DNA of 64,000 nucleotides, taken from the NCBI GenBank assembly GCA_024697945.1, contig JAILRU010000016.1:4588-68587 (forward strand). Direction: 5' to 3'. Below the pieces are notes generated by a model, which worked only from the letters and a program-made list of their open reading frames with translations, ran no database searches and was not told the origin of the DNA. Shown here piece after piece: positions 4,001-46,093 of the stretch; position 1 is the first letter of the stretch; the number at the start of each line of letters is the position of its first letter. The stretch is from Bacteroidaceae bacterium (GTDB lineage: Bacteria > Bacteroidota > Bacteroidia > Bacteroidales > Bacteroidaceae). Made by a program: the position numbers and the translations under genes.

Positions 4001-6356
4001 GGTAGGAAAGACAGCATTTGGCGGCTGTACGGCTCTTACCACCGTTGGCCTGAATGATGCCAACCTCGACAAAGCTGACAACTGCTTCAACGGTTGCACC
4101 AGCCTGACCAATGTCTATTACAATGGTGCCAACCTGCCACTTACCATCTTCAAGAACTGTAAGAAGCTGGAGAAGGTTGACCTTGGTACAGAAGTGAAGA
4201 CCATCCAGTGGAGCGCCTTCGAAGGTTGCACCGCCCTCAATAATGTATATTGCAACGCTATGACTCCGCCGACACTCGTCAAGGGTACGAAGCACGTCAT
4301 CGACTACTGGGACGGCGACGTGGCTTTCGGTCACGATGAAGATGCCTACGCCTTCGACGGTCTGATGCTCTCCAGCATCAACCTCCTTGTGCCTGCCGAC
4401 CTTATTCCTATATATAAGAAGGAGAATGTCTGGAAGGACATGCACATCGTGGGCGACGAAAGCTACGAAGAGCCGATGTTCCCCGTTGGCGGCAGTTTAG
4501 GCGAAATCGCTTGGTGGCAACTCGACGAAAAGGGCACGCTCACCATTACAGGTGAAGGCGAAATACCTTGGACGGACAATGGTTATGGCTGGTATCACAA
4601 GCTCGACCCGTGGGCATCGTTCACCAAGCACGTTATCTACACTGACGGCATCACCACTATCGCACCTGACATTACAAGCAAAAATACCGATTACAGTACG
4701 GTAGAGACCGTGGAGATTGGTGCCGACGTGACACGTATGAATACTGGCTCTATGCTCTATACCGACCTGACCGACATCTATTGCTTCGCCATCGAACCGC
4801 CGACATTCGGCAACCAAGGTTTTGGCGGATGCTTCAACGTGGAAGCTCTGAAAGCAAAAGGCACAACTCTGCACGTTCCCGACTTCTACGGCACACTGGA
4901 GAAGTACAAGAACAGTACGGGATGGGGATGGTTCATACGCATCGTTGCCGACCTGCCCACACGCAAGCCCGGCACCATCTATGTGGAGAGCCTCGCCCTC
5001 AAGCCCGACGCAAAGCACCTCGCCATCTTGCCCGACGAGCTTGGCAGCTACACCTACCAGATTGAGCCTGTCATCTATCCCGCTTGTGCCGACAACAAGG
5101 TGCTGACATGGACATCGGATGACGAGAGCGTCGCTACCGTCGATGAGAACGGACTTGTCACCATCCTTGCCTATCCCATTGACTACAACATTGTGACCAT
5201 TTCCGCCGTCACCACCGACGGTTCGAACAAGCGGGCAACGTGCGAGTTGTTCATCTACAATCCCGAAGAAGTGCAAGGTGGCATTCCCGCCACAGACCTC
5301 GCCATAAACCGCACCAGCATCACCTTGCTGAAGTCGTCGAAATCGACAGTAAAGGTATCGCTCACACCCGCCAACTCCAACTCGTATGTCTCCACTATGA
5401 TAGAAGGTCAGGGCACAATCGATGTCTTCGAGATGTTTGACCCGATGACTGGTGTCACCCAGAGGAATGTCTTCGAAATCACGCCGAGAGACTTGGGCAC
5501 CTTCGTCATCACCTTCCAAGCAACAGATGTTGATTGGGAACAGGTGAGCGAATACCCGACGGCAGTGCTTACCGTGAACGTCATTGACGACGTCATCTTC
5601 ACGGAGAAGAGCGCGGAAGGTGTGCCCGTGACCTATATCGTTAACAGCCTTGATGAGAACACCTGCTCGCTTTACGGCAAAAGGGAGCAAGAAATTTGGG
5701 TTGACCCCGAGACGGGTATCCCAACATGGGGTGAAGAGACATATTACACAGCCGTTGACACAGAGACAAAGGGCGACGTGACCATTCCTACGAAGGCAGG
5801 CGGCTACTTTGTGGTAGGCGTTAGCAACCTGGCTTTCAGGAACTGCAACAATCTGACGGCAGTCGGCTTCGACGAAGGCATCCAGTTCATCGGCGATCAA
5901 GCCTTCGAAGGCTGCGAATCGCTCCGCGAAGTCTATCTGCCCAGCACCATCCAGGGCTTCGGCATCAACTGCTTTGCTATGCTGAGCGAGTTGGGCGACG
6001 TCTATGTCTTTGGCCAGACACCTCCAGTTGGTGGCTTCGAGTATAACAACTATTGGTATGGAGAGGCAGAGAGCAGCATGGCCTTCGACGGCATCTACAC
6101 CATAGATGAAGAGAAGGGCGCAACGCTCCACGTTCCCGTTGGCTGCCGTGAAGCATGGGACATCTATCCCTGGAACATGTGGTTCAGGAACATCGTAGAA
6201 GATGCAATAGATGGCATTGGAACAATTGACAATGGACAGTTGATAATTGATAATCAGACTGACAGCTGGTACGACCTGAGTGGTCGCAAGCTCGGCAGCA
6301 AGCCCACAAAGTCTGGCCTCTACATCATGAATGGAAAGAAAATCGTGATTAAATAA
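1065..6356 (+). CDS. BspA-type leucine-rich-repeat surface protein with Big_2-like domains and T9SS C-terminal sorting domain (1763 aa)
   Basis: Signal peptide MKKKLLLLLCLIVTAGSTSAQ. Many IGE.AF.GCT.L LRR_5-type units. VATVDENGLVTILA Big_2-like segment. C-terminus WYDLSGRKLGSKPTKSGLYIMNGKKIVIK is a typical T9SS CTD. Confidence 0.85.
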   Translation: MKKKLLLLLCLIVTAGSTSAQNGTCKNGTWKIDDNKLTVDVNGKMANYKVVDEGTNAPWYQYRENFKSIHISSNTKTIGERAFSLLYISRVVSGGENVELIKDYGFSSFDNVKVRFPKVKEVEEHGIRAGFITLPVVETLGEYALSNCSYIDLGSKIKTLQPGCMISESLWKSDGRPSVFMSNPTPPEYTIRHDRPWYEDIANFFGNGIGGLVQDRFFECDFPFGDQPKDNPDAGIIIVIPEQYYDNYLSHYNTPGEPYHMIPTWSDYMAAYYVNKNDHTGWYAETKPCGRMERGEPIYNSSDEFIGWWYYSWDINKGAPEDLHVGFVDGKAVKYMSSNVVPWKSILGKVTTMYLHGDGDEVFTIPSECFKDGKGLQGIKTLYLESATGFDIGEGAFEGCTGLNIVSANDHEVTVGANAFKGCTALSSVKASKLTVGENAFSGCAALTSVSADVAFDGPSAFQGCNLANSRNLKIKGSSIPDYTFKGSSIYNVDLKYIKNIGKEAFYGTGIKDVNLSNFKQLGDQAFANSKVKTLTLGNQTPTIGSKVFMNCTSLTDIYVTANIPANTYPSDMFDGVKVENITLHASPEDYANGYEGHPVWGKMIVDKQFTFPVTGYFAGYPWSLSSDGVLKLGCSDQSWVSEYNEGELPWSLYSDYITDVVIEDGSITIDKNVFAGLKNLVNVSIPRTVRNIGDNAFRGCTSLKNVYITRVETLGNSVFEDCSSLETIELGVTLKSAGDYVFRNCKNLIYIDNITDTPAKVTDLTFKDIKSSVYNQRRNAPAKVSEEDAAQYSVTLKIPDAYVTKYMMDTNWGKFHIPYADDRGTWKKCGQFGDGMWILYDDGTLLIAADQGPGDNYDASQPSVLGFSTSLNNPDDPINFTKEIEITGNITHLSCCFQDFKNLESVTLCPSVKSLNTTFMGCTNLTNINLENIETIAYQTFANTGLTSLSLPNTKSIGEAAFTGCTKLVAVALGSGCQVGKTAFGGCTALTTVGLNDANLDKADNCFNGCTSLTNVYYNGANLPLTIFKNCKKLEKVDLGTEVKTIQWSAFEGCTALNNVYCNAMTPPTLVKGTKHVIDYWDGDVAFGHDEDAYAFDGLMLSSINLLVPADLIPIYKKENVWKDMHIVGDESYEEPMFPVGGSLGEIAWWQLDEKGTLTITGEGEIPWTDNGYGWYHKLDPWASFTKHVIYTDGITTIAPDITSKNTDYSTVETVEIGADVTRMNTGSMLYTDLTDIYCFAIEPPTFGNQGFGGCFNVEALKAKGTTLHVPDFYGTLEKYKNSTGWGWFIRIVADLPTRKPGTIYVESLALKPDAKHLAILPDELGSYTYQIEPVIYPACADNKVLTWTSDDESVATVDENGLVTILAYPIDYNIVTISAVTTDGSNKRATCELFIYNPEEVQGGIPATDLAINRTSITLLKSSKSTVKVSLTPANSNSYVSTMIEGQGTIDVFEMFDPMTGVTQRNVFEITPRDLGTFVITFQATDVDWEQVSEYPTAVLTVNVIDDVIFTEKSAEGVPVTYIVNSLDENTCSLYGKREQEIWVDPETGIPTWGEETYYTAVDTETKGDVTIPTKAGGYFVVGVSNLAFRNCNNLTAVGFDEGIQFIGDQAFEGCESLREVYLPSTIQGFGINCFAMLSELGDVYVFGQTPPVGGFEYNNYWYGEAESSMAFDGIYTIDEEKGATLHVPVGCREAWDIYPWNMWFRNIVEDAIDGIGTIDNGQLIIDNQTDSWYDLSGRKLGSKPTKSGLYIMNGKKIVIK
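6224..6258 (+). repeat. degenerate AATTGAT heptamer run inside the CDS, just before the T9SS CTD
   Basis: aattgac aatggac agttgat aattgat aatcaga encodes IDNGQLIIDNQ directly upstream of WYDLSGRK. Confidence 0.7.
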
Positions 6357-6636: not shown

Positions 6637-7536
6637 ATGGACAAATTGAGAATCGCCGTAGTGGGCTACGGAAACATCGGTAAATATGCTCTGCAGGCTT
6701 TGCAGGCTGCTCCAGATATGGAAATAGCAGGCATAGTGCGCCGCAACGGCGCTGCCAACAAACCAGCCGAACTGGCTGACTATGCCGTGGTGAAGGATAT
6801 CAAGGAACTGGGCAAGGTGGACGTCGCCATCCTGGCCACGCCGACACGCTCGGTTGAGGAACACGCCCTGAAATGTCTGGCATTGGGTATCAACACGGTC
6901 GATAGCTTCGACATCCATACCTCCATCCTCGACCTGCGCCGCAGTCTCTCGGCTGCCGCCAAGGAGCATGGGGCTGTAAGCATCATCTCAGCCGGATGGG
7001 ACCCAGGCAGCGACAGCATCGTCCGCACGCTGATGGAGAGCCTCGCGCCCAAGGGCATCACCTATACGAATTTCGGTCCGGGCCGCAGCATGGGACACAG
7101 CGTCTGCGTCCGCAGCAAGGCGGGCGTGAAGGATGCGCTCTCGATGACTATCCCCGTGGGCGAAGGCATCCACCGCCGCATGGTGTATGTGGAACTGGAA
7201 GAGGGTGCGAGTCTGGAAGAGGTGACGAAAGCTATCAAGGCCGACCCCTACTTCGCCAACGACGAGACGCACGTCTTCCAGGTGGAAAGCGTTGATGCAC
7301 TGAACGATGTCGGCCACGGCGTGAACCTGGTCCGCAAGGGTGTGAGCGGTCAGACGCACAACCAGCTCTTCGAGTTCAACATGAAGATTAACAACCCCGC
7401 CCTCACGGCTCAGGTGCTCGTCAATGCGGCCCGTGCCACGATGAAGCAGCAGCCCGGTGCTTATACGATGATTGAGATTCCCGTCATCGACTATCTCCCA
7501 GGCAATAGGGAGGAAATCATTGCACACCTTGTGTAA
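6637..7536 (+). CDS. ddh: meso-diaminopimelate D-dehydrogenase
   Basis: 299 aa. N-terminal Rossmann IAVVGYGNIGK. ISAGWDPG and FGPGRSMGHS motifs typical of Ddh. Confidence 0.9.
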   Translation: MDKLRIAVVGYGNIGKYALQALQAAPDMEIAGIVRRNGAANKPAELADYAVVKDIKELGKVDVAILATPTRSVEEHALKCLALGINTVDSFDIHTSILDLRRSLSAAAKEHGAVSIISAGWDPGSDSIVRTLMESLAPKGITYTNFGPGRSMGHSVCVRSKAGVKDALSMTIPVGEGIHRRMVYVELEEGASLEEVTKAIKADPYFANDETHVFQVESVDALNDVGHGVNLVRKGVSGQTHNQLFEFNMKINNPALTAQVLVNAARATMKQQPGAYTMIEIPVIDYLPGNREEIIAHLV

Positions 7537-13435: not shown

Positions 13436-16327
13436 TCACCTGATGACTTTCTTGCCATCAATAATGTAAATGCCCCTTGGCAATTTTGAATTTTGATTAT
13501 TGATTTTTGCTCCGCCTGCGCCTGAGCTTTGCGAAGAATTATCAAAGCGGCGTCCGCTTACGTCATAGACGGCATCCTCATTTCGAATTGTGAATTGTGA
13601 ATTATGAATTAATTTTATTCCGTCCTCGATGTCGCTGAACTTCAGTACAAGGCTTTGGATGTCGGGATTCTCGAGTGTAAGGTAGGCCTGATTAGGCTCG
13701 ATTGTCTCGTCGGTAGGGGCATAGAAACCCGGAATGTCGTTCTGACCTTGCAACGTAAGCACGTTAGTGGGACTGGCGGGCATGAAGAGACCCTGAAGAG
13801 CAGTGGCTGTGGAGGGTTGTGCCGTGAAACCTTCACCGTATGTCAGTGAGGCTGTTTCACTTTCACCCCACAGCACGACAGGTGTGCCGGCAGGCACGGC
13901 GTTCCCGACATTCGTGAGGAGCACATAGCCCTCACTGATAGCATCCTCTCCTTTTTCGAGGATATAGACCTTGGCATCGCCCACCGTCACGTCGTAGGGA
14001 AAGCAAAGCGTCGTATAGAATCCTTCACCGATAGGCGTCAACGTTACTGGTGCAGTGGGCACTGTCTCCGCGATGATTTGCGAGCCCAGGTCGGTCTTGG
14101 CATTCTCGCTTTCCCATACTTGCAGATAGCCGTGGGGACCTCCGTGAGTATTGACATAATAGTCTTTTTGGTCCATGAGGCTAAGAGAGAAACCGTCGTT
14201 GTTGGCGTGTACTGTCCAACGGAAGTCCCCTTCACGCAGGACGGTATTCTTGATGTCCGAGACGCCTTGCACGGAAGTGGCCGTACCGTCAACCGTCAGC
14301 GAATAGTCCTCCCCCATGAGCTTGTTGACAATCTTGAAACCCTCAATAGGATTCCCTTTGAATGCCCACTGATAAGCATCGCTGGCACGCACGAGGTCTG
14401 TGGCATAGAGTTCCTCCTCCGGATACTCCCCTACAGATGCTTCGTCGTAAGCGTGAGGGTGGTACGGCTCACGGCCTTCCCATCCGACATAGCGGCCAAG
14501 ACACCCTGCCTTGAGGTTGTACCAGGTATCCGTATCGGAGCTTATCTTGAAAGGGGCGCTGCCAGCCCACGTGACGGTGACTTTGATGGATGTGGAGGTG
14601 ATGTTCTTGGGCGAATAGGCGTAGTTGCAGAAGTCGCGAATATAGGCTTCGGGGAGTGCCGCTGCGGTGCTCAGCTCGCCCGGGACGATGGCTTCGCCGC
14701 ATTTCTCGCCTCCGAAGTAGAGGTTGTAGGTGACGTTGATGGTGTTCTCTATTTCCCAGATGTACTGCATGTCGCTGGCATACTCGGCCACGGGACCCTC
14801 GTCGCCCGTGTTCACCGTCCAGAAGGCCTGCGATGCCGCCTCCTGGTTGCCCGTCCCCTTGGCATTGGTGGCACGGACGGCATACTTGCCCTCGCTGTCC
14901 ATGAAGAAGACCTGTGCCTCCCAGTCCTTGCGCTTGCTGCTCATGTTGGTCCGGAGGCGTCCGGAGTTGTACACCACGCTACCGCTGCTCACCTGAGGGC
15001 TGGTGAAGTAGGCGTTTTGCAGGTTGAAGCCGTAGGTATAGGCTGCACCCTCGACACGCGAGAAGGAGAAGATGCTGGCACCCGACGCGTCGGCAGTCAG
15101 GAGTCCGCGGGTGGTGAGGTAGTACTTCGTGTCGCCGACAGTAGTGGAGACCACATACTTGTTCCCAGGCGTGATGGAGGCCAGGGCGCGGAAATAGTCG
15201 GCATGGGGACTTTCCTTGAAGTTGTTGGCGATGATGGCGTCGGTCAGCGCCTGTCCCTTCACCTGGTAATTGCCGGAAACATCCTCGGCAGCATAGTCCA
15301 TCAACACGATGCCCGTGGAACCCGTATGGCTGTTCAGATAGTCGATGACAACAGGATTCTGCGTGGCTGCATTGTCGCGATACCCGTCGCTGGTTGCTAC
15401 CGTGTTTCCGAAAATCGATGCAGTCTTTGAATAGCCCGATGTCTGATTGACCACCCACAAGCTGGGGTTCGTATTCTCCGTGCAGGAGAACTGCAGCATG
15501 CGCTGGATGCTCGCACTCTTTGTGGCGGGAGCATCGCTGGCCGAGACATCATAGAAGTCCTGCACATACAGTGGACCTTGCGTGCCGATACCATTAATCT
15601 TGGCACCTTGCTGATTGGCGAAGTTCGGATTGAAGCCCCAACCAGAGATGTAGCCACCGACAGGATTGGTGCCGTAGTTATCACGGCAAAGGATAAGGAG
15701 CTTACCCCGCATGTCGCCAAGCTTGGCATCCGGATTGAAGTTCACGGCATGGCTCTTCGTAGGATTGCTGTTGAGCAGTTCCTTCATCTTCGTGCCCCAA
15801 GAATCGTTGTTGTCGTCGCCTTCCGACTCATGGCGGATAAAGATGATACAAGTTTCCGTAGGATGACTGTCCAATAGGCCACAGAGCGTGGTAAGGGCAT
15901 CGTCGAAGTAAAGGTTCGTCGAGATGAGGCCATGATAGATACGCAGGCGGGAGCCATCCACGGCCGGACGCAGGTCGAAAGCACGAATGCCGCTGTTCCA
16001 CTGCTCGGTCAATGTCTTTTCCTGCGTAACCGCGTAAGTCTTGCCGCTCACAATCACATAAGCGTTGTTCACGCCGTGTCCAGTCCCCGCATCGTGAGTG
16101 CCTGGGATGGATATCTGACTGATAAACGTGTCATCCGACACCCCCCCCATCCAGGCTGCATTGTCGGCCAGCATCCGAAGCGTGCCCATTCCCTGTAGAA
16201 GGATTACCATCAAGGCGACAAGGCTTGAACCTCTTAAACCCCTTGAACCCCTTGAACCCCTTGAACCTCTTAAACCTCTTAAACCCCTTGAACCTCTTAT
16301 ACCCCTTTCACTTTTCATAGTATTCAT
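13436..16327 (-). CDS. secreted PI-PLC X-domain-like phospholipase C family protein with T9SS C-terminal sorting domain (963 aa)
   Basis: ISIPGTHDAGT...RAFDLRP...RIYHG pattern of PLC-like phosphodiesterases near the N-terminus. C-terminus AVYDVSGRR...LPRGIYIIDGKKVIR. Confidence 0.75.
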   Translation of the reverse strand: MNTMKSERGIRGSRGLRGLRGSRGSRGSRGLRGSSLVALMVILLQGMGTLRMLADNAAWMGGVSDDTFISQISIPGTHDAGTGHGVNNAYVIVSGKTYAVTQEKTLTEQWNSGIRAFDLRPAVDGSRLRIYHGLISTNLYFDDALTTLCGLLDSHPTETCIIFIRHESEGDDNNDSWGTKMKELLNSNPTKSHAVNFNPDAKLGDMRGKLLILCRDNYGTNPVGGYISGWGFNPNFANQQGAKINGIGTQGPLYVQDFYDVSASDAPATKSASIQRMLQFSCTENTNPSLWVVNQTSGYSKTASIFGNTVATSDGYRDNAATQNPVVIDYLNSHTGSTGIVLMDYAAEDVSGNYQVKGQALTDAIIANNFKESPHADYFRALASITPGNKYVVSTTVGDTKYYLTTRGLLTADASGASIFSFSRVEGAAYTYGFNLQNAYFTSPQVSSGSVVYNSGRLRTNMSSKRKDWEAQVFFMDSEGKYAVRATNAKGTGNQEAASQAFWTVNTGDEGPVAEYASDMQYIWEIENTINVTYNLYFGGEKCGEAIVPGELSTAAALPEAYIRDFCNYAYSPKNITSTSIKVTVTWAGSAPFKISSDTDTWYNLKAGCLGRYVGWEGREPYHPHAYDEASVGEYPEEELYATDLVRASDAYQWAFKGNPIEGFKIVNKLMGEDYSLTVDGTATSVQGVSDIKNTVLREGDFRWTVHANNDGFSLSLMDQKDYYVNTHGGPHGYLQVWESENAKTDLGSQIIAETVPTAPVTLTPIGEGFYTTLCFPYDVTVGDAKVYILEKGEDAISEGYVLLTNVGNAVPAGTPVVLWGESETASLTYGEGFTAQPSTATALQGLFMPASPTNVLTLQGQNDIPGFYAPTDETIEPNQAYLTLENPDIQSLVLKFSDIEDGIKLIHNSQFTIRNEDAVYDVSGRRFDNSSQSSGAGGAKINNQNSKLPRGIYIIDGKKVIR
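13477..13545 (-). repeat. 69-nt block shared with 27779-27847, inserted inside the T9SS CTD
   Basis: Reverse complement is ttgataattcttcgcaaagctcaggcgcaggcggagcaaaa + heptamers + ttgccaa. It encodes FDNSSQSSGAGGAKINNQNSKLP. Confidence 0.85.
13584..13611 (-). repeat. heptamer run (AATTCAC family) in the pre-CTD linker
   Basis: Plus strand cgaattg tgaattg tgaatta tgaatta; encodes LIHNSQFTIRN. Confidence 0.8.
16223..16303 (-). repeat. nine tandem 9-mers (CCTTGAACC / TCTTAAACC) encoding (RGS/RGL)n at the N-terminus of the PI-PLC-like protein
   Basis: Direct reading: 9 consecutive 9-nt units. Protein is MNTMKSERGIRGSRGLRGLRGSRGSRGSRGLRGSS followed by the hydrophobic signal core. Confidence 0.9.
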
Positions 16328-41158: not shown

Positions 41159-42481
41159 ATGTATAAAGTTATGAGAAAAAACAATTGGCAAAGAATAATG
41201 AGAGTGACATGTTTTTCTTTTATCATTTGTCATTTATCATTTAGCCCTGCAGGGGCGCTATGGGCTCAAGATATGACGCACTACAAACAGGTTGTGAAGG
41301 AGCTGAGTTCTGCCAAGTACCAAGGCCGTGGCTATGCGAAGGGCGGAGCCAACAAGGCAGGAAAGTTCCTGCAAAAGGAATACCAGAAGGTTGGCGTGGA
41401 CGAGGTGACATTGCAGCCTTTCACACTCGACGTTCAGACGTTTGCAGGCAAGATGGAAGCAAGATGTATGATGGAAGATGGAAGATGGAAGAAGATGGAG
41501 CCCGGCGTTGACTTCTCAATGCGCGAATACTCTCCTGGCGTCAAAGGCGAGTTCCCTGTCTATCATGTCGATACGCTCAACTTTGATGCCGACAGGCTCT
41601 TTGCTGACCTCGCGAAACCTGAGTACAAGAACTGTCTGGTGGCTTGCGAGTTCTGGTTCACCTACAAGCACAGCGACGTCTTCTCCCGTCTGCAAAAGGC
41701 TGGCGAGTGTCCCAATGCAGGTCTTCTCTTCACTTGGCCCGCTCCAATTAAGTTCTTCAAGGCATACGCAAGCAAAGTCGTCGATAAGCCCATAGTTTGG
41801 GTGACGCCGGAAGCCATCGAGGGCGTGAAGCGCGTCCGTCTTAATGTCGATGCCAAGTTCCTGAAGGACTACGAGTGTTTCAACGTCATTTCGAAGATTG
41901 AAGGCGAGAGGCACGACAGCTGCTATGTCTTTACCGCCCATTACGACCACCTTGGCAACCTCGGAAAGAAGGTATTCTATGCTGGGGCTAACGACAATGC
42001 TTCGGGGTCTGCATGTATCGTGACACTTGCCGCATACTATGCCAAGCATCGCCCAAAGTACGACATGTACTTCCTGGCGCTTTCCGGTGAGGACACCAAC
42101 CTGAACGGCTCAAAATGGTTCGTGAAGAATCCTATCGTGCCGCTCTCTCAGATCAAGTACCTCTTCAACATCGACATGATTGGCGACAACAGTCCTGTCC
42201 AATATTGCGAAGTGAGCGATGAAGGCATGAAGGCATTCCCGCTCTTCGAGAAGATAAACGCTGAGAAGCACTACTTCAAGGCTCTCGACCGAGGCAAACT
42301 GGCAGCAAACAGCGACCACTATCCCTTTGCAATGCAGCATGTGCCTTGCATCTTCCTCGAGAACGAGAAGGGCGACGCCTTCCAGTACTACCACACCATC
42401 TACGACAACTGGGACCATGTCGTCACCGACAGCTACGAACCCGTCTTCTGCCTCGTCCGCGACTTTATAGAGCAGTACTAA
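41159..42481 (+). CDS. M28 family peptidase, secreted
   Basis: FTAHYDHLG, GANDNASGSA and EDTNLNGSKW motifs. Start uncertain (41159, 41171 or 41198). Confidence 0.8.
   Translation: MYKVMRKNNWQRIMRVTCFSFIICHLSFSPAGALWAQDMTHYKQVVKELSSAKYQGRGYAKGGANKAGKFLQKEYQKVGVDEVTLQPFTLDVQTFAGKMEARCMMEDGRWKKMEPGVDFSMREYSPGVKGEFPVYHVDTLNFDADRLFADLAKPEYKNCLVACEFWFTYKHSDVFSRLQKAGECPNAGLLFTWPAPIKFFKAYASKVVDKPIVWVTPEAIEGVKRVRLNVDAKFLKDYECFNVISKIEGERHDSCYVFTAHYDHLGNLGKKVFYAGANDNASGSACIVTLAAYYAKHRPKYDMYFLALSGEDTNLNGSKWFVKNPIVPLSQIKYLFNIDMIGDNSPVQYCEVSDEGMKAFPLFEKINAEKHYFKALDRGKLAANSDHYPFAMQHVPCIFLENEKGDAFQYYHTIYDNWDHVVTDSYEPVFCLVRDFIEQY
41218..41245 (+). repeat. TCATTTN heptamer run ending TCATTTAG, encoding the signal-peptide core FIICHLSFS
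   Basis: cttttatcatttgtcatttatcatttag. Confidence 0.85.
41470..41497 (+). repeat. in-frame (GATGGAA)x3 plus a partial unit in the M28 gene
   Basis: gatggaa gatggaa gatggaa gaagatg encodes MEDGRWKKM. Confidence 0.85.
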
Positions 42482-42543
42482 TTGGGGGCGATTATTTCCA
42501 AAGCCATCAGGTTCATCTGAGTGCACTGATGGGCAGTGAGTTT

Positions 42544-43620
42544 TCACTTGTCGTTATGATGCTCCCAGGGGGACAGCATCAACAGCAGTCCTTTTGCACA
42601 AGCATAGAACTGCTCTCCATGTGGCTTCGACAAGGGCGTAAAGCCATTCTCCATAATTACAATGGTGGGGAAACCTGCATCAAAAGCAGCCCGCATCACA
42701 CGCTTCTCCCCAGGCGAGATGGCTGGTGAAACGAGAACACACCCCTGTCTGGCTTCTTCAAGATAGCGCGCCACCTCTTCTGCTATCTCGGCTTCATTCA
42801 GCCGGCGTGATATCCGCACAGCCTTACGCTTCGCAGCAGTCAACAACCCTCTGTTGCCGATGCCGCTATAGCAATGCTCTCCTATTTGGAGGTTAAAGAA
42901 CGGTCGCAACCATTCAGGCCGCATTCGCTTCATCATCAGGCGGCGAGGGTTATCGCGCAGGTAGTTTAGCCATGTATGTAGCTCATCATAAGAGCGCAGT
43001 ATCAGGTCGTTATAGCCCCTCGCAAATAAAGGGCGATAAGGCTCTTGCGACGGCAAAGCCGCCACCTGCAGAGAATCGACTTCCTGCATTTTCCCCACAG
43101 GCTGCGGCTCTGCCTTCTCCGTAGGCTGCGGCTCTGCCGTAACTGTAACCTCCGGCCCGATCTTCTCCGTAGGCTGCGGCTCTGCCGCAGCTATAGCCAG
43201 TGGCTTTGCCGCAGCAACCAAACCCCTTTCCGCCCTTCTGCATCCAGCTTTAAAGCCAGAAATCACCTGCCCCAAATGCACGGGCAACCTGTCGCGCACA
43301 AAAAGAATGCCATGCAAATGGTCTGGCATCATCTGAACGGCCTTTACCTCTATCTGCGGGTAATAGCTGGAAATGCCCAGCCACTCACTTTCGACAGCCT
43401 TTCCCAGTTCGGTCAGCTCCATGCGAGGTTCATCCTTGCTTCCCTTGGGTGCAAAGGCATTGCCTACTATCCGCCCAAAAAGTGGTCTCCGCCCCTCCAC
43501 CTCCAAGGTGATCATATACATACGTCGCTCGCTATAGTCATGATGGTCGTCACGACGTTTCATCGAAGCCTTCTTCTCTCCCGCATGTTCTTTCTTCGCT
43601 GCAATCTGTTCCTCTGTCAT
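42544..43620 (-). CDS. Y1/HUH (IS200-like, RAYT-like) transposase-family protein with an internal repeat insert and an extra C-terminal alpha/beta domain (358 aa)
   Basis: HDYSERRMYMITLEV..RPLFG; HUH as MMPDHLHGILF; PLFARGYNDLILRS...LHTWLNYLRDNPRRL parallels FWEHAIRN...VDYIYINPV of E. coli RayT (from memory). About 65 aa of AAEPQPTEK repeats lie between the HUH and Tyr motifs. Residues about 250-358 are not part of a canonical Y1 domain. Confidence 0.65.
   Translation of the reverse strand: MTEEQIAAKKEHAGEKKASMKRRDDHHDYSERRMYMITLEVEGRRPLFGRIVGNAFAPKGSKDEPRMELTELGKAVESEWLGISSYYPQIEVKAVQMMPDHLHGILFVRDRLPVHLGQVISGFKAGCRRAERGLVAAAKPLAIAAAEPQPTEKIGPEVTVTAEPQPTEKAEPQPVGKMQEVDSLQVAALPSQEPYRPLFARGYNDLILRSYDELHTWLNYLRDNPRRLMMKRMRPEWLRPFFNLQIGEHCYSGIGNRGLLTAAKRKAVRISRRLNEAEIAEEVARYLEEARQGCVLVSPAISPGEKRVMRAAFDAGFPTIVIMENGFTPLSKPHGEQFYACAKGLLLMLSPWEHHNDK
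43095..43194 (+). repeat. REP-like units (GTAG plus GCTGCGG-CTCTG-CCGCAGC hairpin) inside the Y1 gene
   Basis: Three consecutive aggctgcggctctgcc units. GTAG at 43120 and 43168. Full hairpin at 43172-43190. Confidence 0.8.
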
Positions 43621-43657
43621 CCCTATCTAACCTTGCTGTTTATTGTTATTTCGCAAG

Positions 43658-43665
43658 CAAAGGTA
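43658..43665 (-). promoter_or_regulatory. -7 box TAccTTTG for the Y1 gene
   Basis: Plus strand reads caaaggta, about 40 nt upstream of the ATG at 43620. Confidence 0.5.
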
Positions 43666-43735
43666 AGGAAACAAGACCAAACCACCAAGAAAAAGCCCAA
43701 GAAGTTTCCACTCCATAAGGTGCATACAGTATCTT

Positions 43736-43786
43736 CACAGGCTGCGGCCCTACCTTCTCCGTAGGCTGTGGCTTTGCCGCAGCTAT
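43736..43786 (+). repeat. REP-like unit pair upstream of the Y1 gene (copy of 43095-43138 / 43161-43193)
   Basis: cacaggctgcggccctaccttctccgtaggctgtggctttgccgcagctat. 40/44 identity to the intragenic copy and 31/33 to 43161-43193. Confidence 0.8.
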
Positions 43787-43817
43787 TGTCGTGAAGTCCG
43801 ATGCATTTCAAAGTCCA

Positions 43818-43853
43818 CAGCAGCGATGACCCCACATGTGGTCATCGCTGCTG
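43818..43853. repeat. 36-nt near-perfect palindrome
   Basis: cagcagcgatgacc ccacatgt ggtcatcgctgctg (14-bp stem). Confidence 0.85.
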
Positions 43854-43860
43854 TCATCAT

Positions 43861-43929
43861 TTAGGATTGCGCCTGCCCTGTTACTACAACGAGGGCGAGC
43901 AGGATGGTGATGATGGTCTGTTTTGTGTT
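43861..43929 (-). pseudogene. remnant of a second tlpA-like gene: signal-peptide coding fragment without ATG, stopped after about 20 codons
   Basis: Minus strand aaacagaccatcatcaccatcctgctcgccctc...cagggcaggcgcaatcctaa is about 85 percent identical to the 5' end of the gene at 44990 (KQTIITILLAL..GQAQ). Confidence 0.55.
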
Positions 43930-43934
43930 TGTTT

Positions 43935-44990
43935 TTATTCTCCGAAGATTTTCTCCAATTCCTTTTCGATGTTCTCTCCGCGCAGGCCGCGCTTCAATAT
44001 CTTGCCATCGGGGGCAAAGAGGATAATCTCGGGGATGAATCTGATGCCGTAGAGGTCGGTGGCTATTTTCTGCGAGTTGATGATTTGCGGATAGGGAATC
44101 TTCTCGTCCTCGATGGCTTTCAGCGTCGCTTCGGGCTTGTCCCATGCAGCGATGCCAAGAACTTGGAGGCCCTGGTCTTTGTGCTTGTTGTAAGCGGCAA
44201 TGAGGTTGGGAATCTCGGCTCGGCATGGACCGCACCATGATGCCCAGAAATCGACGAGCACATACTGCCCCTTGCCCACATAGTCAGAGAGCTTCGTTGT
44301 CTTGCCCTCGTACTCAACGGCGAAGTCCACGAACATACTACCGATGCTGGTTACGGGTTGTGCTTTCAGCTTGTCGTATATCCGTTTTAAATCGCCAGAG
44401 AGATAGGGCGTCTTGCTGATGTATTCTCCATTGTCGCGCATCATCTTGTCGTAAAGTTCAATCCACCGGGCAGCATCTAAATACATGCGTCCTTCGTTGA
44501 CAAGGAGGATAATGCCATAGACATCGTGTGTATGACGAGAGATAACATCATAGACAACTGCCGCCTTATCCTCCGTCTCGTCCATACGCCGGTTGAAGGC
44601 AGCTATTTCGTCGCTGATAGGTGTGCCGCTCTGCTGCAACCAGTTTCCTTTCAGCCCTTCCACTCGGGTTGTTCCGTTGTCAATGAAAAGCCAACTCAAC
44701 GACAATTTGCTTGTTGTATATGGCACAGAGTCTGTCTGCACGAGTATGGTCGTCGTATCATTTAGGTTGCATAATGCCATTTCAGGCAAATCACCTTCTT
44801 TAGGTGTGATGATGCCGTTCACCACTTCTATCGTGGCGATTTCCTGTGCCTTCAGAAGATCTACCACAGACATGATGCCCGTGAATTCAGGATGCCCAAT
44901 GTTTCCCTCAAGGCGGTAATGTATTTGCGCCTGCCCTGCAACTGCGCAGAGGGCAAGCAGGATGGTGATGATGGTTTGTTTCATGTGCAA
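43935..44990 (-). CDS. TlpA-family thiol:disulfide oxidoreductase (thioredoxin fold), secreted
   Basis: Signal peptide, then DFWASWCGPCRAEIPNL CxxC motif; 351 aa with an N-terminal accessory domain. Confidence 0.8.
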   Translation of the reverse strand: MHMKQTIITILLALCAVAGQAQIHYRLEGNIGHPEFTGIMSVVDLLKAQEIATIEVVNGIITPKEGDLPEMALCNLNDTTTILVQTDSVPYTTSKLSLSWLFIDNGTTRVEGLKGNWLQQSGTPISDEIAAFNRRMDETEDKAAVVYDVISRHTHDVYGIILLVNEGRMYLDAARWIELYDKMMRDNGEYISKTPYLSGDLKRIYDKLKAQPVTSIGSMFVDFAVEYEGKTTKLSDYVGKGQYVLVDFWASWCGPCRAEIPNLIAAYNKHKDQGLQVLGIAAWDKPEATLKAIEDEKIPYPQIINSQKIATDLYGIRFIPEIILFAPDGKILKRGLRGENIEKELEKIFGE

Positions 44991-45157
44991 ATAACTTTTT
45001 ACCTTTATATATTTATATAACGTACGAGAGGACGAAATGTTAACTGATTTTGAGTTAAAATTTCTTAAAGCTGTGGTATTTTGTTTATTTTGTCTTTTTT
45101 GGTAACGGGCAGGGTGTGTTTTGATGTACTATATGTATGTTCCATCATGCAAAAAGT

Positions 45158-45267
45158 GTATGCTCAATGAGAAGAAAGTGCACGCTCAATGAGAAGAAAG
45201 TGCGTACTGAATAGGACGAATGAGCAGGGTCAATAGGGGAAAAGAGTCTGCTGAATAGGGAGAAAGA
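45158..45267. repeat. five tandem 22-bp units (two near-identical, three degenerate)
   Basis: gctcaatgagaagaaagtgc occurs twice exactly (45162, 45184). This is followed by tactgaataggacgaatgagc, gggtcaataggggaaaagag and ctgctgaatagggagaaagag in 22-nt phase. Confidence 0.8.
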
Positions 45268-45306: not shown

Positions 45307-45394
45307 TGCGGCGGGCGGTGAAAACATTTTCAGCGGCCGCTGAAAATATCCGCAGCGCCCGCCGAAAAGAATTGCAGCGCCCGCTGAAAACCTA
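45307..45394. repeat. four 22-bp-phased GC(A/G)GCGCCCGC(T/C)GAAAA units, including a 20-nt perfect palindrome
   Basis: ttttcagcggccgctgaaaa (45329-45348) is a perfect palindrome. gcagcgcccgccgaaaag and gcagcgcccgctgaaaac follow. The last unit reaches the stop of the HU-like gene. Confidence 0.8.
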
Positions 45395-46021
45395 TTTTTG
45401 TGTAGTCAGTATGACATAGTGCCACGTGTGCCCTTCTTTGTGGCGCTCCAGACGTGGTTCCTTGCCCCAACAGAGGCTGTCGAGGTAATCTTTTGCCGAA
45501 TGGTACTTCAGGCCACTATGACGCATAAAGGTGCTGATGGTGATGTAACCATAACGCGTGCTGCGACGCAGAGCCTCATCCATTGCCTTGGAGTCGTACA
45601 TCTGACTGTTGCCTACACTTATCCTCAGTTTGCGGAATCCGTCGCGCGAACAGTCGGCATCGTTCACAAACTGTTTATTGGGGATAAACTCTATACCATT
45701 ATATATAATATCGCGTCCCGTCACCTTGTCGGGGTTGGTGTGTTCTCCAACCAACTTCAGTTTGGGAGCAAGGGAACCGAAGGGCGTTTCCACACGGTAG
45801 CCTTTGCGAAGCCACATCGTGACGACCTCTTCCAGCAGATAGAAGAGCCGCTGCATCTCTCCCTTGCTCGTATGCCGATATTTGGCACAAAAATCATCGA
45901 TATCATCAAGCTCATACTTACGCTCTATCACGGGCTGGGCGTAGAGCAAAGGCTTGCCGTCGTCACCCTTGGTGGGACGCGGTTGCAGTTCAAAGAGTAT
46001 TCCGTCAGTCTTACGTGGCAT
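45392..46021 (-). CDS. HU-like (Bacteroidota histone-like, HU_HIG-type) DNA-binding domain protein
   Basis: From MPRKTDG: ..LLYAQPVIERKYELDDIDDFCAKYRHTSKGEMQRLFYLLEEVVTMWLRKGYRVETPFGSL.. fits the N-terminal HU-like pattern. Start set at the ATG at 46021, downstream of a -7 box. Confidence 0.55.
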   Translation of the reverse strand: MPRKTDGILFELQPRPTKGDDGKPLLYAQPVIERKYELDDIDDFCAKYRHTSKGEMQRLFYLLEEVVTMWLRKGYRVETPFGSLAPKLKLVGEHTNPDKVTGRDIIYNGIEFIPNKQFVNDADCSRDGFRKLRISVGNSQMYDSKAMDEALRRSTRYGYITISTFMRHSGLKYHSAKDYLDSLCWGKEPRLERHKEGHTWHYVILTTQK

Positions 46022-46048
46022 ATTTGTTCCTTTTAGGTAATTATGGTG

Positions 46049-46056
46049 CAAATATA
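46049..46056 (-). promoter_or_regulatory. -7 box TAtaTTTG for the HU-like gene
   Basis: Plus strand reads caaatata, 28 nt upstream of the ATG. Confidence 0.55.
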
Positions 46057-46093
46057 CTGAATTTAATTCAAAAATATCCATGCGGTTGCAAAT

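Follow-up and report, generated by a model that had tools for sequence, protein, structure and literature searches.

REP-like hairpins conserved as base-paired structures within the gene of a RAYT-like HUH protein with a predicted DprA-like domain

We analysed a 64,000-nt stretch of DNA (64 kb; hereafter the window) from a Bacteroidaceae bacterium, positions 4,588 to 68,587 of contig JAILRU010000016.1 in assembly GCA_024697945.1. Its gene at 42478..43620 on the minus strand encodes a fusion of two domains. The first resembles the nucleases of the REP-associated tyrosine transposases (RAYTs; REP, repetitive extragenic palindrome) and the second resembles DprA, while the DNA for a disordered loop in the first domain contains REP-like hairpins. 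The fold and the catalytic motifs of both domains are recognisable, and the hairpins are conserved as base-paired structures even though the encoded amino acids change. We consider it probable, at roughly 60%, that the gene encodes a domesticated, resident RAYT-DprA enzyme which carries its cognate hairpins in its own loop-coding DNA.

Each element consists of an 8-bp hairpin with a TTCTCCGTAG foot on its 5′ side. The loop (residues 138–198; 43027..43209, minus strand) connects αC and β4 of the nuclease fold, and its DNA contains the element E1, then degenerate half-units, and last the inverted element E2. E1 is complete (CTTCTCCGTAG followed by GCTGCGGC-TCT-GCCGCAGC; 43162..43191 on the plus strand, hairpin at 43173-43191; 43.9 bits) and is translated on the coding strand as AAAEPQPTEK. 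E2 reads TTCTCTGCAG followed by GTGGCGGC-TTT-GCCGTCGC on the coding strand (43047..43075, minus strand; 46.7 bits) and encodes SLQVAALPSQ. The foot TTCTC(C)G(T/C)AG is kept in both orientations, and in E2 its TAG is turned into CAG, so that an in-frame stop is avoided. The order on the coding strand is hairpin1-CTAC ... (G)CAG-hairpin2, with the feet pointing inward about the variable array. This array has a 24-nt period (Tandem Repeats Finder: 43099-43186, 3.7 copies, 65% matches, score 99) and includes a degenerate second E1-type unit with the right arm CCGTAAC (43113..43148, plus strand; 35.1 bits) and a third unit that has ACAG in place of GTAG and no right arm. The three GTAG-hairpin units of the first-pass annotation of this DNA are therefore a real array, but only one of them is a complete hairpin, and the inverted E2 had been overlooked.

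A further E1-type copy (foot plus GCTGTGGC-TTT-GCCGCAGC; 43753..43788, plus strand; 35.6 bits) begins 134 nt 5′ of the ATG. It is oriented as E1, contains one G.T wobble on the plus strand, and matches the in-gene motif at 90.9% over 44 nt and at 83% over 58 nt. An orthologous copy is present at 5808-5843 of L001, a locus whose protein is 80% identical (L-numbers denote relatives' loci and P-numbers homolog proteins). The 32-mer CTTCTCCGTAGGCTGCGGCTCTGCCGCAGCTA was found at 43162-43193 (0 mismatches), 43114-43145 (3 mismatches) and 43754-43785 (2 mismatches), where 0 sites are expected by chance, and at no other site in the 64 kb; the upstream copy proposed at first pass is thus real. With a covariance model that had been trained on other genomes' E2 copies, we detected exactly four sites in the window with scores of 35–47 bits, namely 43042-43077 (minus strand) and 43161-43196, 43113-43148 and 43753-43788 (plus strand); the best remaining site scored 11.7 bits. 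In general, GTAG with a 7-bp hairpin behind it is not enriched in the window, where 9 such sites were counted versus 7.4 in shuffles.

To describe how the elements evolve, we gathered 80 relatives' loci at 50–80% identity, and 84 distinct genes were codon-aligned. The synonymous sites of the E1 stem are frozen: third-position entropy is 0.37 bits at the Ala GCG codon (G in 74 of 78 sequences) and 0.11 bits at the Pro CCG codon (65 of 66), compared with 0.8–2.0 bits, mostly 1.2–2.0, at other fourfold sites of conserved residues in the gene. The stem also covaries. Among 68 sequences, E1 is 91.5% paired (18–48% with a slid partner), both sides vary in six of its eight pairs, and 56 covarying cells were counted against 14.9 ± 3 after shuffling. 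For E2 (55 sequences), the pairing is 97.7%, both sides again vary in six of eight pairs, and the count is 66 cells against 16.9 ± 6.7. Compensatory changes in E1 shift the peptide from AAAKPQP to TAAEPLS, ATAKPLP, DAAKPRP or VATQSQQ. Because these changes rewrite the amino acids, the peptide is not the conserved target. Selection acts on the nucleic acid, not on the protein, for both hairpins, and the repeats deserve the description REP-like that they had been given from the GTAG foot and hairpin.

The mismatches that are tolerated differ between the two elements. On the sense strand, the 50 non-Watson-Crick cells of E1 include 33 C.A, which are G.T on the antisense (plus) strand, versus 4 G.T; in E2 the sense strand has 37 G.T versus 1 C.A. 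Each element therefore pairs best on the strand that bears its own 5′ foot. We rejected coding constraint as an explanation of this asymmetry, since E1 and E2 share the same frame relative to the hairpin yet show opposite asymmetry. A bias of this kind is expected if an oriented REP-like element is read in single-stranded form; a function at the mRNA level alone would account for it poorly. When the loop was folded in full as single-stranded DNA, the z-scores were only modest (−2.3 and −3.0).

The two hairpins are also kept separately from each other. Their arms are the same in only 3 of 68 genomes, and the identity between E1 and E2 within genomes (0.70) is barely above that between genomes (0.66), which argues that each hairpin is kept in place locally. 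Long-range pairing of E1 with E2, as in the long hairpin of a REPIN (a REP doublet forming a hairpin), was rejected because the E1 and E2 stems of one genome are unlike and covariation is internal to each of them; the exception is L156, in which the copies are nearly identical.

The encoded protein belongs to a large unnamed family. A word-index search returned more than 3134 homologs with 100% query coverage, and an exhaustive search returned 3689 clusters at 50% identity with E ≤ 1e-3, 341 of them with E ≤ 1e-30. The best 120 homologs are full-length (345–431 aa) and 68–96% identical, and the named ones are called "hypothetical protein [Prevotella sp.]". A distant branch takes in a metagenome-assembled genome (MAG) of Kiritimatiellia. 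The family thus comprises thousands of 50%-identity clusters from Prevotella/Bacteroidales and at least Kiritimatiellia.

The N-terminal part (about residues 26–235, interrupted by the loop; 42916..43545, minus strand) is supported as a RAYT-like Y1 HUH domain by motifs, profiles and structural matches. The HUH motif is PDHLHGILF (H101 at 43318-43320 and H103 at 43312-43314, minus strand), and the Tyr motif is WLNYLRDNPRR, with a catalytic-type Y220 at 42961-42963 (minus strand). H101, H103, N224 and R227 are invariant in an alignment of 49 sequences, and Y220 and P225 are conserved in at least 90%. Quentin et al. (2018, PMC6006769) have distinguished the class-2 (RAYT) Tyr signature Y-x-x-x-N-P from the Y-x-x-x-Q of IS200, and YLRDNP in the window protein is of the former type. 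The NCBIfam profile REP_Tyr_transpos (NF047646) matches all 49 family members, apparently below its threshold (best E = 1e-13), and Pfam Y1_Tnp matches 28 of 49 relatives at E ≤ 0.1 (best 3e-7), also apparently sub-threshold; two relatives examined individually scored 13.9 and 20 bits against a gathering cut-off of 23.

Structural prediction agrees with this assignment. The AlphaFold2 (AF2) model of the whole protein has a mean confidence (predicted local distance difference test, pLDDT) of 85.9, with disorder confined to residues 152–192, where pLDDT is below 50, and its order of secondary structures is that of the Y1 HUH fold (β-α-β-β-α-β-α). Foldseek matched the full model with probability 1.0 to ISDra2, IS608 and IS200 transposases and the Escherichia coli RAYT (PDB 2xm3, 2a6m, 2f4f and 4er8), the last with E = 1.2e-3. 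A profile of the N-terminal domain from which the loop had been spliced out matched ISDra2 TnpA (E = 9e-4) from β2 through the HUH motif and αC to β4. The HUH and Tyr regions of a RAYT-type Y1 enzyme, recognised at first pass, are thus confirmed. Neither PHROGs nor PADLOC was matched by the window protein or its close relatives. Two other matches were rejected: Gp5_trimer_C (Pfam) on P0064 is spurious, as it sits on octapeptide repeats, and a glucan synthase (E = 0.85) from a single-protein search of PDB sequences is noise.

The C-terminal region, from about residue 236 to the end (42478..42915, minus strand), is an additional α/β domain, as the first-pass annotation had said (pLDDT above 90 in the whole model, 96.4 in a model of the domain alone). 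Judged from this model and from profiles, it is a DprA-type Rossmann (DprA/SLOG-like) domain. The whole-protein profile touched four DprA entries at E of about 0.1. When the profile was limited to the C-terminal domain, PDB chains of DprA ranked first (E = 0.0066–0.015), with the typical start of the DprA Rossmann fold aligned, and the first 14 PDB matches of Foldseek were all ShosA or DprA (query-normalised TM-score, TMq, 0.61–0.66), the next match having E = 0.16. The resemblance to DprA and SLOG proteins that had been noted from the sequence is upheld by these matches. Pfam DNA_processg_A (PF02481) matched 2 members only (E = 0.0011 and E = 0.1, the latter at 12.2 bits against a cut-off of 29.6).

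The Rossmann-type fold is common to the window domain, DprA/Smf (4ljk, 3uqz, 3maj) and ShosA of the Shosta defence system (8zva). With DprA the domain shares the start signature (G[ND]xxLLxxPxxhxhxxSRxxxxxxxxxxxxhhxxhxxxGxxhVS), which is aligned at E = 0.007. However, the SG[GA]AxGID motif of DprA is replaced by SPxISxGE, and no accessory domain of DprA (sterile alpha motif, SAM, or C-terminal winged helix) is present in the AF2 model; the domain is fused to a nuclease. Unlike in Shosta, no ShosT-like partner lies beside the window gene, and there is no PADLOC match. We found no description in the literature of a fusion of a RAYT, HUH or IS200 protein with DprA, in agreement with the earlier view that this domain is not known from RAYTs. 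However, it is not a local fusion: essentially all members carry it, and it is therefore a feature of the family.

The window copy may itself be impaired. Its reading frame meets an in-frame TGA at 42544-42546, which would end the open reading frame (ORF; 42544..43620) after 358 aa, at a position that is Arg in all homologs. Past the TGA the frame stays open for 21 codons (KLTAHQCTQMNLMALEIIAPN) up to a TAG at 42478-42480, and the homologs are about 22 residues longer; P0001, which is 96% identical to the window protein, reads ...HHNDKRKLTAHQC... across this position. The TGA, which is either a recent nonsense change or a sequencing error, deletes the conserved final helix (TRxQCxxLNxxA) from the DprA-like domain.

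The loop module was compared across the family. In a clade at about 52% identity, the hairpin is GTTGCGAC-TCA-GTCGCAAC, with two compensated pairs. In the Kiritimatiellia locus L156, a 33-nt inverted repeat (97% complementary) bounds the loop, with CCGGGGGC-TTGC-GCCCCCGG plus CACAGAACAAG and its inverse; the architecture is that of Prevotella, and the stem is unrelated. Loop length is hypervariable family-wide, the range being about 14 to over 170 aa, and the loops of P0183/L158, P0176, P0179 and P0260 are nearly empty. The tandem half-unit measures 24 nt in the window, 21 nt in L025 and 84 nt in L021. In L157 we observed a second module, composed of an E1 array and an E2-like element, in the DNA of the protein's C-terminal tail (4169-4381; GTEQGSPGTEQGASGTEQG ... 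PVPEARASE). Its stem variant is that of the L156 genome and is unlike that of L157's own loop.

Copies outside the loop were searched for in relatives with the E2-based covariance model (88 loci, 462 kb). Among the 88 loci, nearly every gene contains a single E2 together with one or more E1 copies. Copies shortly 5′ of the start codon, all in E1 orientation, were found in L001, L025, L094 and L100 (two copies). Upstream copies are present in 5–7 of about 85 relatives, and L158 has a weak element-like site immediately downstream of the gene. In L076 and L156, upstream fragments of the gene's 5′ half (260–300 nt) terminate precisely at an E1 copy. The L076 fragment (1957-2216; 260 nt, 92% identity) adjoins a 633-aa ORF of unknown function, and the L156 fragment (2615-2959; 300 nt, 100% identity) could be an assembly artefact. 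Three further sites lie in-frame in CobQ (L128), in intergenic DNA (L122) and in L130. The outside copies bear lineage-specific E1 variants of their own genome; L122, for example, has a GTAC foot and L100 a GGAGCGGC stem.

In L128, the gene for the cobyric acid synthase CobQ (1288-2997) adjoins the RAYT-like gene, and an in-frame insert of about 50 aa divides its match to NCBIfam cobQ. Two E1-type units and an E2-type unit make up the insert, which shares 87.7% identity with the loop DNA of the same genome over 65 nt. The insert has the stop-avoiding GCAG foot of the gene's E2, which points to copying from the gene outward. A possible second insert (...AFTERRPTQNGETDREEGTPAPVACRPSLREG...) was seen further on in the same CobQ. 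In TrpF (phosphoribosylanthranilate isomerase; L014 392-1021 and L058, from Prevotellaceae MAGs) a reversed element is present in-frame and encodes FSVGCGSAAAN; TrpF orthologs at 73–84% identity are without this 8–9-aa insert, and P0271 and P0272 have it as a tandem duplicate. A secreted protein in L047 has an in-frame copy that matches the gene of L021, from the same MAG. We also scanned the exact 17-mer core over 185,579 species genomes (596 Gb) and obtained about 70 stretches, which is about the calculated chance expectation. Only the matches in Prevotellaceae are meaningful, because the left arm is also present there. The genes concerned are not homologous, and the matches fall in a secreted protein, in C-termini, in linkers and, reversed, in TrpF. 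The element is thus mobile, or at least copied, at very low copy number. The first-pass annotation had raised the occurrence of the motif elsewhere in the genome; copies do exist in genes and flanks of a few other genomes, but no REPIN-like population was found in the DNA scanned, and no copy lies elsewhere in the window.

These copies could also be read in another way. Each genome might hold a pool of REPs or REPINs that recurrently invades genes, the αC–β4 loop being a tolerant hot target in which hairpins are replaced and not maintained. In-frame REPs are documented in tnpA_REP genes (PMC6006769); E1 and E2 of L156 are 97% identical inverted copies, the tail of L157 has received a second module, and copies occur in TrpF, CobQ and intergenic DNA. 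However, the codon positions of E1 and E2 are fixed across about 70 diverged genes, and within a genome the two elements have diverged about as much as between genomes, with arms seldom identical. Moreover, no pool was seen in about 520 kb of flanks or in the 64-kb window, and the GCAG foot of the CobQ copy indicates copying in the outward direction. We therefore regard recurrent invasion as unlikely.

It is less probable still that the hairpins act in the mRNA, either through translational pauses that let the split HUH domain fold co-translationally or by stabilising the message, with no relation to a substrate. The pairing of E2, which is best on the sense strand and has G.U-type cells there, would suit such a role, and the loop's sense strand outdoes its shuffles in folding (z = −2.98). 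E1, however, is best paired on the antisense strand, and its mismatches on the sense strand are mainly C.A. In addition, the foot keeps one sequence across the two orientations and the differing reading frames, and E1-type copies are found 5′ of the promoter as well as, in either orientation, within other genes (reversed in TrpF). Rfam gave nothing meaningful on 42300-44100 (mir-598, E = 0.97, on a hairpin at 43817-43854).

An ordinary low-complexity linker rich in Pro and Ala, made by replication slippage and palindromic only because its Ala (GCN) and Pro/Gln codons happen to make it so, would account for the expansion and contraction of the tandem half-units and for the wide variation in length, but it is very improbable given compensatory double changes that alter amino acids, frozen synonymous sites in the stems of an otherwise saturated gene, and a reversed element in TrpF that gives another peptide.

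The last alternative is a recent insertion of an active IS200/IS605-like element between the genes for an M28 peptidase and a TlpA-like protein, in line with the insertion that the first-pass annotation had suggested. In its favour are the Y1 HUH fold of the protein, the E1-type direct repeats on either side of the promoter and 5′ half of the gene, and a nearby orphan signal-peptide remnant of tlpA type. However, IS200/IS605 elements are multi-copy, with subterminal hairpins at both ends and often tnpB, whereas there is one gene copy per contig here, and neither tnpB nor a downstream end hairpin was found at the locus. In L001 and L002 (80% identity), the neighbourhood is that of the window (cation efflux, M28, the gene, electron transfer flavoprotein), and in a second clade the gene is held between glycyl-tRNA synthetase and a block of extracytoplasmic function (ECF) sigma factor and topoisomerase IV. 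Since synteny is conserved in two clades, the gene is a resident single-copy gene, and recent insertion can be almost wholly discounted.

The upstream region of L001 is wholly orthologous to that of the window, including the signal-peptide remnant, the hairpin with 18-bp arms, the element copy and the promoter region. In the window, the tlpA-like gene (43935-44990), which had been taken for a decapitated paralog, is intact; the orphan signal-peptide copy (KQTIITILLALVVVTGQAQS*, 43861-43925, minus strand) adjoins it, and next to this remnant lies the hairpin at 43817-43854 (18-nt arms, 94% complementary). Both remnant and hairpin are kept in L001, where no tlpA gene stands, and the remnant is older than the split between the window and L001. 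Between the upstream element copy and the gene, 38 nt 5′ of the ATG, inspection of the sequence revealed TAccTTTG (43658..43665, minus strand), which we take to be similar to the −7 promoter box of Bacteroidetes.

Some other repeats were observed. In the window, a 9-nt unit (CTTGAACCC) is repeated 9.3 times at 16224-16307 inside a long ORF (13436-16327, minus strand), 22-nt-unit arrays occupy the intergenic DNA at 45153-45203 and 45319-45391, upstream of a gene at 45392-46081 (minus strand), and many 7-nt AT-rich arrays occur in intergenic DNA throughout. In L003, an intergenic 84-nt inverted repeat of AGACTGACAG-type units (7179-7497, 85% complementary) lies downstream of a homolog of the P0056 clade and is unrelated to E1 and E2.

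Several observations weigh against the interpretation as a RAYT-like enzyme with its cognate hairpins. At the level of the protein, Pfam returned no match for the window sequence and thus none at the gathering threshold of PF01797 (Y1_Tnp), so that the Y1_Tnp family named at first pass is reached only through the matches of relatives; in NCBIfam the sole match is REP_Tyr_transpos at 25.6 bits over residues 89–128, where the cut-off is 80. At the level of the elements, E2 lacks a true GTAG and has GCAG or GTAT, and the foot differs from GTAG in both the Kiritimatiellia clade and the 52%-identity clade. Some members are without the loop module, which implies that the hairpins are dispensable for the core job of the protein, and a structure on the sense strand could act in mRNA instead. 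Copies are also scarce. The covariance model found no further copy elsewhere in the 64-kb window and none downstream of the gene. Only three copies away from the gene's promoter region were found in about 520 kb of relatives' flanks, and approximately 120 kb of 10-kb flanks had none. The exact 17-mer core occurs at no more than two loci per species genome. A classical high-copy extragenic REP or REPIN population, with tens to hundreds of members, was not found in the window or in the relatives' flanks scanned, and the behaviour of the system is not that of a classical REP/RAYT pair.

Quentin, Siguier, Chandler and Fichant (2018, PMC6006769) have reported REPs that lie in-frame within tnpA_REP genes of RAYT subclass 2.4, as well as REP insertions in unrelated genes, and Di Nocera et al. 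(2013, PMC3733652) have catalogued intragenic GTAG REPs and Rickettsia palindromic elements (RPEs). The claim that REPs within their own transposase gene would be new is thus not tenable. Subclass 2.4 shares the Y1 HUH fold, the Y---NP Tyr motif and a low gene copy number with the window family. However, it has NH[IFV]H where the window family has DH[LM]H, together with the W motif [FW]xxG[YF]xD and the Tyr motif YL[RH]DNP, and none of the RAYT subclasses listed in PMC6006769 is fitted by DHLH, [FW]xxG[YF]xD and YL[RH]DNP. The protein of the window family is also about 150 aa longer, owing to the DprA-like domain, and its intragenic hairpins are ancient, fixed in position and covarying, with no genome-wide REP population seen. 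The family was probably outside the Quentin survey because it is below the Pfam and NCBIfam thresholds. RAYT subclasses 2.1 and 2.3 (TIRYTs) likewise combine a Y1 class-2 core with an added C-terminal nucleic-acid-binding domain and look domesticated at low copy. Their added domain, however, is a helix-turn-helix (Bac_DnaA_C-like) and they have no associated REPs, whereas the window family has a DprA-like domain and hairpins.

The elements themselves can be compared with two known kinds. Like the GTAG-REPs and BIMEs (bacterial interspersed mosaic elements) of the E. coli RAYT (4er8) and the REPINs of Pseudomonas, they have a 5′ GTAG and a GC-rich imperfect hairpin and form inverted doublets, and the E. 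coli RAYT is likewise a single-copy, vertically inherited HUH gene with adjoining REPs. Classical REPs, however, are found outside genes, at tens to hundreds per genome, whereas here they lie in or just upstream of the gene, and the others are rare and mostly in in-frame coding DNA. RPEs and other intragenic REPs (PMC3733652) are short palindromes in-frame in tolerant loops of housekeeping genes, as are the copies in TrpF, CobQ and the secreted protein. The window elements are much shorter than RPEs (about 30 nt, with a doublet of about 65 nt), have a very low copy number, and have an apparent master copy inside the gene of the putative mobilising enzyme itself. What sets the family apart is the DprA-like fusion, the unlisted motifs, scores under the cut-offs for the window protein and the individually checked members, the apparent lack of a large REP population in the DNA scanned and the strand-specific structural selection on ancient hairpins; the presence of REPs in their own RAYT gene was known.

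If the enzyme is a domesticated RAYT-DprA protein, the hairpins would be its putative cognate single-strand DNA sites, bound and nicked by the encoded HUH domain by analogy with the E. coli RAYT and its GTAG-REPs. In-frame carriage within a tolerant loop may keep enzyme and substrate co-inherited, and the upstream and in-gene copies could arise by occasional enzyme-mediated copying. The DprA-like domain would then hold the single-stranded product and may hand it over to RecA. A bolder version, which we put forward only tentatively and consider doubtful, is that the family represents an unrecognised, widespread class of domesticated HUH enzymes, with a REPIN-like "master copy" in their own gene, delivery of the strand to RecA, in-frame pasting and a drive on loop length. 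If this were true, the module would occasionally be pasted in-frame into other genes, and the length of its own loop would be varied rapidly.

The purpose of RAYTs and REPs is a long-standing open question. For this question the family would be an unusually clean handle, as the putative enzyme and one to a few cognate hairpins are contained within about 1.1 kb. The strand-specific covariation signature tells which strand is read, and the relatives with an empty loop are natural controls. The fused DprA-like domain suggests a downstream step, namely the handling of single-stranded DNA and the loading of RecA. The finding also indicates that a "proline-rich linker" can be shaped by selection on DNA structure and not on the peptide. 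Finally, the protein is very abundant and wholly unannotated in rumen and gut Prevotella, and a name and a domain model would improve the annotation of thousands of genomes.

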